A stretch of 63,325 bases of DNA, filler included, from Reclinomonas americana ATCC 50394 (taxonomy: Eukaryota): NCBI GenBank assembly GCA_048213135.1. It is 7 parts of 4 records of this genome, joined end to end, with 100 filler letters (N's around TTAATTAATTAA, not from the genome) between each part and the next. Parts side by side here need not be neighbours in the genome. Positions count along the whole stretch, not along the records: positions 37,019 to 42,414 come from PS015055.1; 6 more parts are not named here. One strand, 5' to 3'. Below, piece after piece: positions 38,241 to 50,351 of this stretch (position 1 is its first letter; every line of letters starts with the position of its first letter). Made by a program: the position numbers and the translations under genes. Below the pieces are notes generated by a model that saw nothing but the letters and a program-made list of their open reading frames with translations, was not told the origin of the DNA and made no database searches.

Positions 38241-41200
38241 ACGCACACTCACACACACACTCACGGAACACACATGCATTCCCAACCAAATCAAATCTTC
38301 TCCTTTCCAACTCTCGTTAAGCCTCCCACTCGCTGTCTCATTATCTCACCCCTTCTCTTGCCTCTCTCTNNNNNNNNNNNNNNNNNNNNNNNNNNNNNNN
38401 NNNNNNNNNNNNNNNNNNNNNNNNNNNNNNNNNNNNNNNNNNNNNNNNNNNNNNNNNNNNNNNNNNNNNNNNNNNNNNNNNNNNNNNNNNNNNNNNNNNN
38501 NNNNNNNNNNNNNNNNNNNNNNNNNNNNNNNNNNNNNNNNNNNNNNNNNNNNNNNNNNNNNNNNNNNNNNNNNNNNNNNNNNNNNNNNNNNNNNNNNNNN
38601 NNNTGCGTGCGCACGCTCAGGCCTTCAATGAGCCCGGAACCCCGTTGCATACACGCACCCGCATGGTGGTCCTGGACGAACAGACTCGTTTCGTACTTGC
38701 GTGTTCCCCCGTGTTGCTGCTGTTGCTGCTCACCAGCCATGCAGGTCGCGATGCTGCCACGGCGTTTTTCGGTGCCGAGAATGTGCCGCTGCGTGCGCTG
38801 ACGGTCCGTACTCTCTGGGCATGCGTCGCCTTTCTCTCTTGCAATCGTCGCCTCCTCACGCTCCTCGCCGACAGATGGGCGTGGAGACCATTGCCAACTC
38901 ACGCCGCATTCTTGTGCTGGCCACCGGCGAGGGCAAGTCGCGCATCGTCAAGGCGGCCCTGGAGGGCCCACAGACCACACACGTGCCGGTGTCGTGCTTG
39001 CAGTCGCACCGCAACTGCCGTTTCATTGTCGATCATGCTGCGGCGGAGTTACTGGAGCGGTGAGTGGCGAGAGAGGGAAAAGGGGGAGGGCAAATGAGGA
39101 AGTGGGGGTAGGAGAAGCACGATGCACTCTCGCGAACGCTTACCGAAATCTCTNNNNNNNNNNNNNNNNNNNNNNNNNNNNNNNNNNNNNNNNNNNNNNN
39201 NNNNNNNNNNNNNNNNNNNNNNNNNNNNNNNNNNNNNNNNNNNNNNNNNNNNNNNNNNNNNNNNNNNNNNNNNNNNNNNNNNNNNNNNNNNNNNNNNNNN
39301 NNNNNNNNNNNNNNNNNNNNNNNNNNNNNNNNNNNNNNNNNNNNNNNNNNNNNNNNNNNNNNNNNNNNNNNNNNNNNNNNNNNNNNNNNNNNNNNNNNNN
39401 NNNNNNNNNNNNNNNNNNNNNNNNNNNNNNNNNNNNNNNNNNNNNNNNNNNNNNNNNNNNNNNNNNNNNNNNNNNNNNNNNNNNNNNNNNNNNNNNNNNN
39501 NNNNNNNNNNNNNNNNNNNNNNNNNNNNNNNNNNNNNNNNNNNNNNNNNNNNNNNNNNNNNNNNNNNNNNNNNNNNNNNNNNNNNNNNNNNNNNNNNNNN
39601 NNNNNNNNNNNNNNNNNNNNNNNNNNNNNNNNNNNNNNNNNNNNNNNNNNNNNNNNNNNNNNNNNNNNNNNNNNNNNNNNNNNNNNNNNNNNNNNNNNNN
39701 NNNNNNNNNNNNNNNNNNNNNNNNNNNNNNNNNNNNNNNNNNNNNNNNNNNNNNNNNNNNNNNNNNNNNNNNNNNNNNNNNNNNNNNNNNNNNNNNNNNN
39801 NNNNNNNNNNNNNNNNNNNNNNNNNNNNNNNNNNNNNNNNNNNNNNNNNNNNNNNNNNNNNNNNNNNNNNNNNNNNNNNNNNNNNNNNNNNNNNNNNNNN
39901 NNNNNNNNNNNNNNNNNNNNNNNNNNNNNNNNNNNNNNNNNNNNNNNNNNNNNNNNNNNNNNNNNNNNNNNNNNNNNNNNNNNNNNNNNNNNNNNNNNNN
40001 NNNNNNNNNNNNNCACGAGAAATGCGCATCGTGGTCGTAATCGAGCTTTGGCGATCGTGAATACTGTAGCGAGTAAGTGAGAGAACCATGGAAGCAAAGT
40101 TTGCAGTAACTGAAGGCGCGTCATGGTCGTACTCGAGCTTTGGCGATCTTGAATACTCTAGCGAGTGAGCAAGAGGAGTGCGGGAGCTGAGTTCACAGTG
40201 CACATGAAGCATTGCGTACATGAGTGAGCATTCAATCGCTCTTGAACACTAAGTGAGGCAACTGAGAAGGCGCATGGTCGATGTTGAATACTGTGGCGAG
40301 TGCAACTTGAGCTGAGATTGCAGTTCCACATGATTGCAATGAGCAACTGAGCTAGATTTAGTACGCTCTTGAATGCTGCGACAGAGGAAGCGAGTTTGTT
40401 GATGGATGTTCAACAAGCGATTGAGTGGCGTGGATGGAGGGCGACAGGGAGTCTCATTTCTGACTCCACGCAGCGCCTGGGCATGGGCGAGGAGCACGCG
40501 CACTTCCTCAACCTGCCGTTCTACCAGACTGGTGCGCAAGCTGTTTTATAGTCGCTCATCCTTCATCGCCGTAACTCACAGATCTCTCGTTAAAAAATAG
40601 GCACCATCGAGAAGAAGACTGTGGGCGAGGAGGACGTGCAGATTGTGTACGAGCTGCTGCAGAAGCTCCGACCACACCACATTTTCCTGGCTGGCGATCT
40701 CACCGACCCACACGGCACACATCATATCCTTTTGTCGTCGCCCAGCTGCTGTGCTCTCGCCTTTTCTCCCTTCGTGTCTCCTTGACTCCTCCTCCTCCTC
40801 CTCCTCACGCCAGTGCTACTTTGCCATCCGCGACGCCCACATCCGCTACAAGGAGCTGTGCTTTGCCAATCAGGAAGAGTTCCCGCTGCCGCTGGTCTAC
40901 CTGTACCGCGGTGCTTGGCAAGAGTGGAATCTGGAGGACGTGTCGCTCTTTGTGCCGTTCTCGCCGACGGAGATGGACATTAAGATTCACAGCATTTTCG
41001 CGCACGAGAGTCAGAAGGACAAGGCCATGTACCCCGGCAATGATGAGCGGTGAGTGGGGGGCGAAGGGGAGAGGGTGAAGGGGAAGGAAGGGACGCAAGA
41101 ATGAGAGCGAGTTGTCATATTTGAAAGAGTAATCACCAAAGGAAGAGAGAGTCGCATGGGACTCACCCGCGTCCCCTCTGCAGTGAATTCTGGCAACGCG

Positions 41201-41379
41201 CTCGTGACCGCAATCGCGCCACCGCCGCTGCCGTGGCCGCTCTCGGATTGCCCAAGTTGCGTCCTCTCCACCGATCATTCCTCGATTCATCACCACACTT
41301 ACACGTCGCGAACCACAGTTTCGGAGCCATGGAGGCCTTTGTGATTGTCGACGACATCCCTCTCGGCCGTCTCCGTTAA
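37087..41379 (+). CDS. nagB: Two-domain glucosamine-6-phosphate deaminase (NagB plus PIG-L/LmbE-like C-terminal domain), partial
   Basis: VLGLPTGSTP, TFNL|DEYYP, GHI|AFNEPG, ALT|MGV, LATGEGK; C-terminal HFLNLPFYQTG, AGDLTDPHGTHR, LYRGAWQEW, IFAHESQKD, EFWQRA and MEAFV. One exon lies inverted at 37823-37884. Confidence 0.92.
37823..37884 (-). CDS. nagB: Internal nagB exon on an inverted contig
   Basis: AIEAAGGIDIMILGIGRNGHI; its phases fit the flanking + strand exons exactly. Confidence 0.88.
40724..40808 (+). other. U12-type AT-AC intron (85 nt)
   Basis: Donor ATATCCTTT, branch site TCCTTGAC (40779-40786), acceptor CAC; removal gives DPHGTHRQCYFAI. Confidence 0.9.
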
Positions 41380-41477
41380 ACCGACGCCTCGTCTCCTCCT
41401 TCTCTCCCTCCCCCACTCGACTATCGCTTCGTGCACCACCACAACCACCACCACCATTAAAACCAAGCGCGGAGCGT

Positions 41478-41750
41478 TCATCTCTTGGGTTTGATAATTC
41501 GCTGCCGAAACGCCGCCTCGCCCGCCTCCGCATAATCCGCACGCAAGTGCGCAAACAGTGGCGAATCACACGGAATGACGTCCGACTCGAGCTGCACGCC
41601 ATCCGCTCGCCGATACGTGAAATACGCAATCTCATCACTGCCCTCCAACGACAACGCCTCCGCCGTCTGCGCATACAGACCCTCCAGCGTCAGCGGCAGT
41701 GGAATACGAACGCGCATCACTCGCGGCTGCTGCTGCTCGACAGTCACATC
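41478..41750 (-). CDS. Probable last exon of an unidentified gene
   Basis: Coding-like ORF (RVRIPLPLTLEGLYAQTAEALSL...YFTYRRADG) ending in TGA, convergent with nagB. Confidence 0.5.
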   Translation of the reverse strand, partial: DVTVEQQQPRVMRVRIPLPLTLEGLYAQTAEALSLEGSDEIAYFTYRRADGVQLESDVIPCDSPLFAHLRADYAEAGEAAFRQRIIKPKR

Positions 41751-42514
41751 CACCGCACTGACACTGATCCGCTAATGAGCACAGAAAACGGAAGAACTGG
41801 CAGAGTGTGGAACGAAACGCTCGTGTCGCGCTGGAGTCGATCACGTGAATGTCAAGCAGAGGCCGGTCGGACTGCGAAGAAGGAGAAGGATGAGCAGAAG
41901 GAGAAGGCGAAGGATACGGAGAAGGATAAGGAAGAGAAGGAATAGAAGGAAAAGGCGAAGGATAAAGCGAGGAAATCGCGAAGAAGAATGCAGCGAAGGA
42001 TGAGAAGAAGGATAAGGCGAGGGTGAAGAGCGAGGATGAGGAGATGGAGGAGAAGAAGGGCGAGGAGGAGAAGGAAGAGCAGGAAACGGCGAAGGATGAG
42101 GTGACGGATAAGACGAAGAAGGAAGGTGAAGGATGGAGGCCAAGGCTGAGATAACGAAGGATGAGGAGAACGGTTACGAAGGATAAGGTGACGAATAAGG
42201 AGAAGGATATGGCGAAGGATGAGGCGAAGGACTGAGATACCGAAGGATGAATGAAGGATAAGGTGACGGATAAGACGAAGGACAAGAAGGTGAAGGAAAA
42301 GGCGACGGATAAGGAGAGAAAGGCGAAGGATAGGGCGAAGAGGCGACGGATAAGGCGTCGCCTTTTAACGCCTAACGCTACAGATCCATCTTCTCTCTCT
42401 CTCTCTCTCTCTCTNNNNNNNNNNNNNNNNNNNNNNNNNNNNNNNNNNNNNNNNNNNNTTAATTAATTAANNNNNNNNNNNNNNNNNNNNNNNNNNNNNN
42501 NNNNNNNNNNNNNN

Positions 42515-49734: not shown

Positions 49735-50351
49735 GTGAGTGAAAGGGAGAAGGGAGGAGAGGAGGGAAGGGAGAATAGAGGAGAAGAGAGAGGAGAGGAG
49801 GAGAATAGAGCGTGCAGTCCATTACTTTGTCGTCTCGCTCTCTCTCTCTCTCTCTCTCTCGTTGCACAAACGCTCGCAGATCGACAGCTATGTTGCGCTG
49901 TTCACTTCTGACTGTGCTTCCCCGATAATTATCTCTCTTTGTCTCTCACTTGTTTCACCATTCACTTGCCGTTTCCTTCTGATTCCGCTCGGTGACTCTC
50001 TCTCTCTCTCTCGCTCTCTCTATCTCTCTCTCTCTCTATTTGTGTTTCTCGCTGAAATCCCTCATCATTCACTTGCTTTCAAGCGTGCTTTGCTTTTCTT
50101 CTCATTTGCTTCCTGGATTGCGCGCGCGTTCTCTCTCTTTCTCTCTTGATTTATCATCGTATGCCGTTCAACGTCGTTTCTTCTTTCTTTGCTTCCTCGG
50201 TTACTATCTCTATTCTTTCTTTNNNNNNNNNNNNNNNNNNNNNNNNNNNNNNNNNNNNNNNNNNNNTTAATTAATTAANNNNNNNNNNNNNNNNNNNNNN
50301 NNNNNNNNNNNNNNNNNNNNNNCGTGTGTGTGTGTGTGTGTCGTCGTCGTC

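Follow-up and report, generated by a model that had tools for sequence, protein, structure and literature searches.

A probable U12-type AT-AC intron within a bacterial-type nagB gene of Reclinomonas americana

Minor (U12-type) introns are seen as an ancient class to which new members are almost never added. Those of the AT-AC subtype known from animals, plants, Acanthamoeba and Phytophthora combine an exact 5′ splice site with a TCCTTRAC branch site and AT-AC ends; they lie in a non-zero phase and are rare. Here we describe an intron with the same features in a nagB gene of Reclinomonas americana ATCC 50394 (GenBank assembly GCA_048213135.1). The intron, at positions 40724-40808, was proposed in a preliminary description of a 63,325-nucleotide (nt) stretch of this genome, hereafter the window, and is the one AT-AC intron among the 14 introns that could be placed with confidence. 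It departs from the canonical introns in two respects. The putative branch A lies 23 nt from the last base of the intron, across an interval filled by (TCC)6, where the canonical optimum is 11-13 nt, and the host is apparently a gene that came from bacteria and not one of the ancient 'information-processing' genes.

The consensus for U12 introns given in a preprint by Larue, Elias and Roy is [G/A]TATCCTT at the 5′ site and TTCCTT[G/A]AC at up to about 45 bases from the 3′ site. The same preprint describes the U12 introns of Physarum polycephalum, which are of recent evolutionary origin and enriched in newer genes. This species has AT-AC introns as well, of which 627 are reported with a perfect ATATCCTT. 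However, the Physarum branch motif is TTTGA, placed 10-12 nt from the 3′ site, whereas the branch site at our locus is the classical one, a motif that occurs in only 20 of the 3,648 Physarum introns with a perfect 5′ site. About one Physarum intron in nine is U12-type (20,899 U12-type against 154,299 U2-type), compared with one in 14 here. A Physarum-like system was rejected for the present intron on both counts, the branch motif with its position and the far higher share of U12-type introns.

Outside Physarum, the gain of minor introns is described as extremely rare in PMC10639083. The same paper reports short minor introns in Blastocystis ST1, mostly AT-AC (196/253); these have a mean length of about 42 bp and are found preferentially in phase 0, whereas the intron described here has 85 nt and is in phase 1. 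In Acrasis kona, transferred genes have acquired spliceosomal introns in the eukaryotic host, as we propose for nagB, but the introns are not described as U12-type in the available sections of PMC11589745, while one of the eight in our gene appears to be. The pan-eukaryotic survey of Larue and Roy reported no evidence of minor introns in Discoba, and a Diplonema genome paper reports that neither AT-AC introns nor minor small nuclear RNAs (snRNAs) are present. A U12 intron in a transferred gene is not apparent among the papers listed by a library search on U12-type gain and horizontal transfer, although supplementary tables may list cases; the terms horizontal and lateral transfer are absent from PMC10639083, as are 'horizontal' and 'bacteria' from the Physarum preprint.

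The signals of the intron are those of the classical class. Its first nine bases, ATATCCTTT, match [G/A]TATCCTT at 8 of 8 positions and [G/A]TATC[C/T]TTT at 9 of 9, and the branch-site motif TCCTTGAC matches TCCTTRAC at all eight. Both motifs had been assigned to the U12 consensus in the preliminary description, and both agree with the consensus quoted in the preprint. The intron ends in TCAC, with the terminal AC at 40807-40808, and since the (TCC)6 run is without A or G this CAC is the earliest possible AC or AG past the branch. The upstream exon reads ...GGC ACA CAT C and the downstream exon opens GC CAG TGC. The flanking C (40723) and GC (40809-40810) rebuild a single CGC (Arg) codon and the intron is therefore in phase 1, in agreement with the under-representation of phase 0 among minor introns noted in PMC10639083. 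Excision gives ...GDLTDPHGTH-R-QCYFAIRD..., and retention shifts the frame, with a TGA reached at 40783-40785. Read directly from the sequence, the boundaries originally given are exact.

The predicted host gene, on the scaffold at 37019-42414, is a long-form NagB, in which an N-terminal glucosamine-6-phosphate deaminase would be followed by a C-terminal PIG-L-like domain. The N-terminal part is matched by PF01182 on 38632-39060 (E 2.1e-06), and the homologue P0297 matches solved NagB structures (E 3e-49). Alignments of the four C-terminal exons cover 178-187 residues, with 57-59% identity to proteins annotated with PF02585. Pfam searches of the single exons around the intron gave no relevant match; the first half of the PIG-L domain falls within an 860-N gap.

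The position of the excision was determined by homology. A search with the downstream exon returned 51 relatives, nearly all of about 620-680 residues and carrying PF01182 and PF02585. In every one of them DPHGTH is separated from the following C by exactly two residues, and in 50 of the 51 the first of these is R. The named eukaryotic homologues likewise read DPHGTH-x-x-C, with Barthelona differing in having DLDPHGTH; in this check of the eukaryotic homologues the DPHGTH-x-x-C search motif was not found in P0359. We then scored all in-frame, stop-free excisions starting at 40690-40789 and ending at up to 40849 (n = 2661) against a hidden Markov model of 40 full-length homologues, blind to the splice dinucleotides. 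The AT-AC excision 40724-40808 was joint top at 158.4 bits, tied only with 40723-40807 (CA-CA), which gives an identical protein. The best GC-AG candidate reached 143.5 bits (rank 746) and the sole GT-AG candidate, a 40-nt excision at 40774-40813, reached 138.1 bits (rank 1493). The AT-AC model, which restores DPHGTH-R-QC, is thus borne out by a score that selects the same boundaries. The accompanying statement, that the motif is not restored from any GT donor, was also correct, as the only in-frame, stop-free GT-AG pair would put 17 residues between the H and the C. Neither the downstream-exon search nor an exhaustive phmmer search returned a transcript-derived protein of this organism among the homologues.

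Motifs were counted in the window, RTATCCTT and TCCTTRAC on both strands, and the counts of RTATCCTT and of a compound of the two motifs were compared with 100 shuffles. The 5′ motif RTATCCTT occurs three times against 0.80 expected, a count reached in 6 of the 100 shuffles. The two matches outside the intron (41910-41917 and 42203-42210, minus strand) sit in a GA-rich tandem repeat and are for this reason repeat artefacts. For TCCTTRAC, 3.71 matches are expected in the window and a single one is present, inside the intron. The compound motif ATATCCTT-N30-60-TCCTTRAC also has a single occurrence, and none of the 100 shuffles reached one. Since the two U12 motifs bracket the homology-derived excision to the base, we consider a coincidence very unlikely, a judgement rather than a computed probability.

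Other introns in the window were examined with the same blind test. For all seven remaining nagB introns, of 57-186 nt, a GT-AG pair was in the tied top set. In the gene for SF3B3, on a separate scaffold, GT-AG was in the top set for 5 of the 13 junctions tested; at the other eight the best canonical pair (six GT-AG, two GC-AG) scored 0.9-5.8 bits under the top, and at none of the 13 was AT-AC the best canonical pair. Four further SF3B3 block pairs were skipped as showing no clear intron. One of two junctions in a P5-ATPase gene was a clear 60-nt GT-AG intron and the second was not placed. The 13 confidently placed introns other than the AT-AC intron are all GT-AG and span the same 57-186 nt. 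Their donors are degenerate, with GT and little beyond, and ATATCCTTT therefore belongs to a different signal class from the ordinary donor, as expected where two spliceosomes coexist.

Given the signals, their uniqueness in the window, the excision demanded by homology and the GT-AG neighbours, we consider it very probable that 40724-40808 represents a true minor-spliceosome intron with AT-AC ends, in phase 1 within the PIG-L-like domain of nagB. Taken by itself, the intron is a typical member of this known class. By analogy with minor splicing elsewhere, the U11/U12 di-snRNP (small nuclear ribonucleoprotein) would bind the 5′ site ATATCCTTT and the branch site TCCTTGAC together, after which U6atac would displace U11 from its place there. 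Attack by the branch A at 40785 would follow, and the first AC past the branch, at 40807-40808, would serve as the 3′ site, with C joined to GC to give ...DPHGTH-R-QCYF.... The three exons downstream of the intron are open and 47-60% identical to homologues despite the stop that retention would bring into frame, which supports its removal. From this intact and conserved downstream frame we infer that the intron is spliced out, and a minor spliceosome in the organism may soundly be deduced from the same frame. In the window, as distinct from the whole genome, Rfam found one tRNA and no minor snRNA, and Pfam gave no match to minor-specific spliceosome proteins.

A number of observations weigh against this assignment. 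The distance from branch to 3′ site, although within the 45-nt search range, is beyond the optimum given in PMC3584512, where U12 introns are also said to be typically without a polypyrimidine tract; the stretch here is pure pyrimidine. This (TCC)6 may be a microsatellite expansion, and (TCC)n runs are common elsewhere in the window. They were also all that was returned when the 85-nt intron was compared with the window by blastn as a possible mobile-element copy. None of the 13 other introns with assigned boundaries looked U12-like. A frame-keeping GT-AG alternative exists. The gene as assembled is incomplete: the 860-N gap interrupts it, a start codon was not found and one of the contigs with an exon is inverted, and an expressed, intact nagB is not proven by such an assembly.

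The GT-AG alternative would make the true intron a 40-nt U2-type intron at 40774-40813 and the ATATCC... stretch coding, with 17 residues (HILLSSPSCCALAFSPF in place of R-Q) after DPHGTH. It is the only GT-AG pair with an open frame and TCCTTGAC is passable as a loose U2 branch site. However, it lies 20 bits below the AT-AC model at its rank of 1493 of 2661, destroys the H-x-x-C spacing shared by all 51 homologues and, at 40 nt, falls below the size range of the 13 other placed introns. The branch A would sit just 11 nt from the donor and a perfect 9-nt U12 donor would be left unexplained, and of the explanations considered we give this one the least credence, close to none. The state of the assembly raises a different explanation, in which the segment is retained in a pseudogene or mis-assembled copy and the U12 signals are either left over from an ancestor that had minor splicing or coincidental. 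The gaps, the missing start codon and the inverted contig would fit such a copy, but all 11 recognisable exon pieces are open and the aligned ones are 36-70% identical to homologues. A gap lies precisely at each end of the inverted contig, 37772-38369, and the gene otherwise runs on the plus strand; the contig is therefore probably mis-oriented through a scaffolding error. Both U12 motifs are perfect, and their chance agreement with the homology boundaries to the base is very unlikely. We regard a retained segment as highly improbable.

It is also conceivable that the AT-AC ends are used, but by a single spliceosome of mixed U2 and U12 features, an arrangement that has been suggested for some metamonads. 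Metamonads and heteroloboseans are among the nearest eukaryotic NagB relatives, hybrid snRNAs are described in Giardia in PMC6679479, and Larue and Roy found no evidence of minor introns in Discoba. Against this, the 13 other introns with short, degenerate GT donors point to two coexisting classes of intron, as with two spliceosomes, and the motifs of the AT-AC intron are the classical pairing sites of U11/U6atac and of U12. The chance that a mixed spliceosome is at work seems to us slimmer still than that of a retained segment.

The ancestry of nagB bears on when the intron arose. In GTDB, taken as one genome per species, 545 of 551 pattern matches encode relatives, found in Rhodothermales, Bacteroidota, Gemmatimonadota, Planctomycetota and others. 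In a scan of metagenomes 577 of 597 matches were relatives; the best 80 are at most 65% identical, and a close relative of the organism was therefore not found. The eukaryotic holders found by exhaustive phmmer and cluster names are Heterolobosea sp. BB2, Acrasis kona, Anaeramoeba ignava, Barthelona, Skoliomonas and Chlorokybus. The accessions are KAL0485830.1 for Acrasis kona, KAJ5070564.1 for Anaeramoeba ignava and KAL0213201.1 for Skoliomonas. Long-form NagB (P0297, P0305, P0444, P0434, P0003, P0440) is patchy in Heterolobosea, several metamonads and Chlorokybus.

Trees were made as quick, unrooted maximum likelihood searches, with 69 rows (LG+G4) and with 43 rows (mixture model). In the 69-row tree the window protein falls in an eight-row clade (Shimodaira-Hasegawa-like approximate likelihood ratio test, SH-aLRT, 96) with BB2, Acrasis, Anaeramoeba (two identical rows) and three further proteins including P0359. 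This clade adjoins a Rhodothermota clade, and the 25-row set around both has a support of 98. In the mixture-model tree the window groups with BB2, Acrasis and two further proteins (84) and then with Anaeramoeba (90); the resulting six-row group again lies beside Rhodothermota, and P0359 is no longer part of it. Skoliomonas, Barthelona and Chlorokybus take other positions, away from the window, in both of these trees. An earlier grouping of Skoliomonas with the window, seen in a first tree, was gone after more eukaryotes were added and was put down to a long-branch effect. The long-branch protein P0360 has a similarity of 27-43% to the window protein.

These homologue, GTDB and tree results bear out the view of nagB as a bacterial-type gene. 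A bacterial origin with a patchy distribution in eukaryotes is the most economical reading of the sequences and appears likely, and the at least three separate placements of long-form NagB among bacterial sequences suggest repeated transfers. Two points tell against it. The window protein resembles Rhodothermales proteins (51-58%) as closely as the eukaryotic ones (49-59%), and the trees come from quick, unrooted searches in which the eukaryotic branches are long. As the patchy eukaryotic copies lie within a bacterial radiation, beside Rhodothermota, the intron was most likely acquired after a transfer from a bacterium to a eukaryote. If the origin is bacterial, all eight nagB introns, the U12-type one included, post-date the transfer.

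The preliminary description had gone on to suggest a de novo gain of the U12 intron, should the gene have come laterally. A gain after transfer does follow from a bacterial origin, but the gene is not private to this organism, as BB2, Acrasis and Anaeramoeba are in the same cluster. The protein P0296, of 423 residues and encoded on a 3973-nt contig, reads through this site without a break, which would hint that it has no intron there if the contig is DNA. A further-reaching version would have a U12-type intron born after the entry of a Rhodothermota-like nagB into eukaryotes, and now found in a protist lineage without documented minor splicing. It draws on the nearest NagB relatives being Heterolobosea and Anaeramoeba and on the Discoba survey without minor introns, and we offer it as a speculative reading that is rather unlikely to hold.

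The coordinates of the features are collected in the table below. The window is a chain of short, gap-rich eukaryotic scaffolds with 54.7% G+C in its non-N sequence. The spacers between scaffolds consist of N44 + TTAATTAATTAA + N44 and carry stops in all six frames; genes on the two sides of a spacer are not necessarily neighbours. The SF3B3 (SF3b130) gene, at 30218-34183, has at least 13 short introns, with unusually degenerate U2-type 5′ sites. Its exon has best identities of 59-61%, with plants and animals at 54-57%, and matches generic eukaryotic SF3B3 clusters. The P5-ATPase exon has best identities of 40-48% to a mix of amoebozoans, holozoans, fungi and a parabasalid. In the searches with these two exons the best database match of the window proteins was 61% and no near-identical protein was found. 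A PSMB1 fragment compared with the PDB ranks mammals first. At 7189-11250 on the plus strand there are four tandem copies, about 1.1-1.2 kb apart, of an open reading frame family with a CNKK-ILV-AFG-MAP-like stretch and no Pfam match.

Table 1. Positions of the nagB features, the intron signals and other elements in the window.
Feature	Position	Strand	Details or basis
AT-AC intron, U12-type by sequence	40724-40808	+	85 nt, phase 1; sequence, blind excision scoring, unique compound motif
5′ splice site ATATCCTTT	40724-40732	+	First nine bases of the intron; sequence read
Branch-site motif TCCTTGAC	40779-40786	+	Putative branch A 40785; 8/8 match to TCCTTRAC
(TCC)6 microsatellite	40787-40804	+	Branch site to 3′ CAC; sequence read
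Upstream exon	40601-40723	+	Ends ...GDLTDPHGTH + first base of the Arg codon
Downstream exon	40809-41049	+	(R)QCYFAIRD...GNDE(R)
Last coding exon	41319-41379	+	With stop codon
N-terminal NagB (PF01182) part	37077-39060	+	Exons split by GT-AG introns and assembly gaps; tblastn exon alignments, Pfam
NagB exon (..GGIDIMILGIGRNGHI)	37823-37882	-	In gap-bounded contig 37772-38369
Assembly gap	39154-40013		860 N; hides linker and first half of PIG-L domain
GT-AG intron, nagB	37174-37359	+	Blind excision
GT-AG intron, nagB	37437-37517	+	Blind excision
GT-AG intron, nagB	38688-38744	+	Blind excision
GT-AG intron, nagB	38804-38874	+	Blind excision
GT-AG intron, nagB	40532-40600	+	69 nt; blind excision, top set
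GT-AG intron, nagB	41050-41183	+	134 nt; blind excision
GT-AG intron, nagB	41256-41318	+	63 nt; blind excision
GA-rich tandem repeats	41878-42355		Periods 6, 12, 18, 86; just 3′ of nagB
tRNA-Glu(CTC)	27843-27915	-	Sole RNA family match in the window (Rfam)
Spacer	29974-30073		
Spacer	36919-37018		
Spacer	42415-42514		
Spacer	50223-50322		
Spacer	56829-56928		
Spacer	61530-61629		

The presence of a probable U12-type intron in nagB predicts a working minor spliceosome in R. americana. It also means that gene finders limited to GT-AG and GC-AG introns would mis-annotate the gene. The host gene lends the intron a moderate evolutionary interest. Any intron in a bacterial gene must be younger than the entry of that gene into a eukaryote. 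A U12-type intron at such a place would therefore be direct evidence of a U12 gain later than the origin of eukaryotes, and would place a bound on its date. If the birth of this intron after transfer is true, it would be a clean and datable creation of a U12 intron outside Physarum and would widen the known range of the minor spliceosome.

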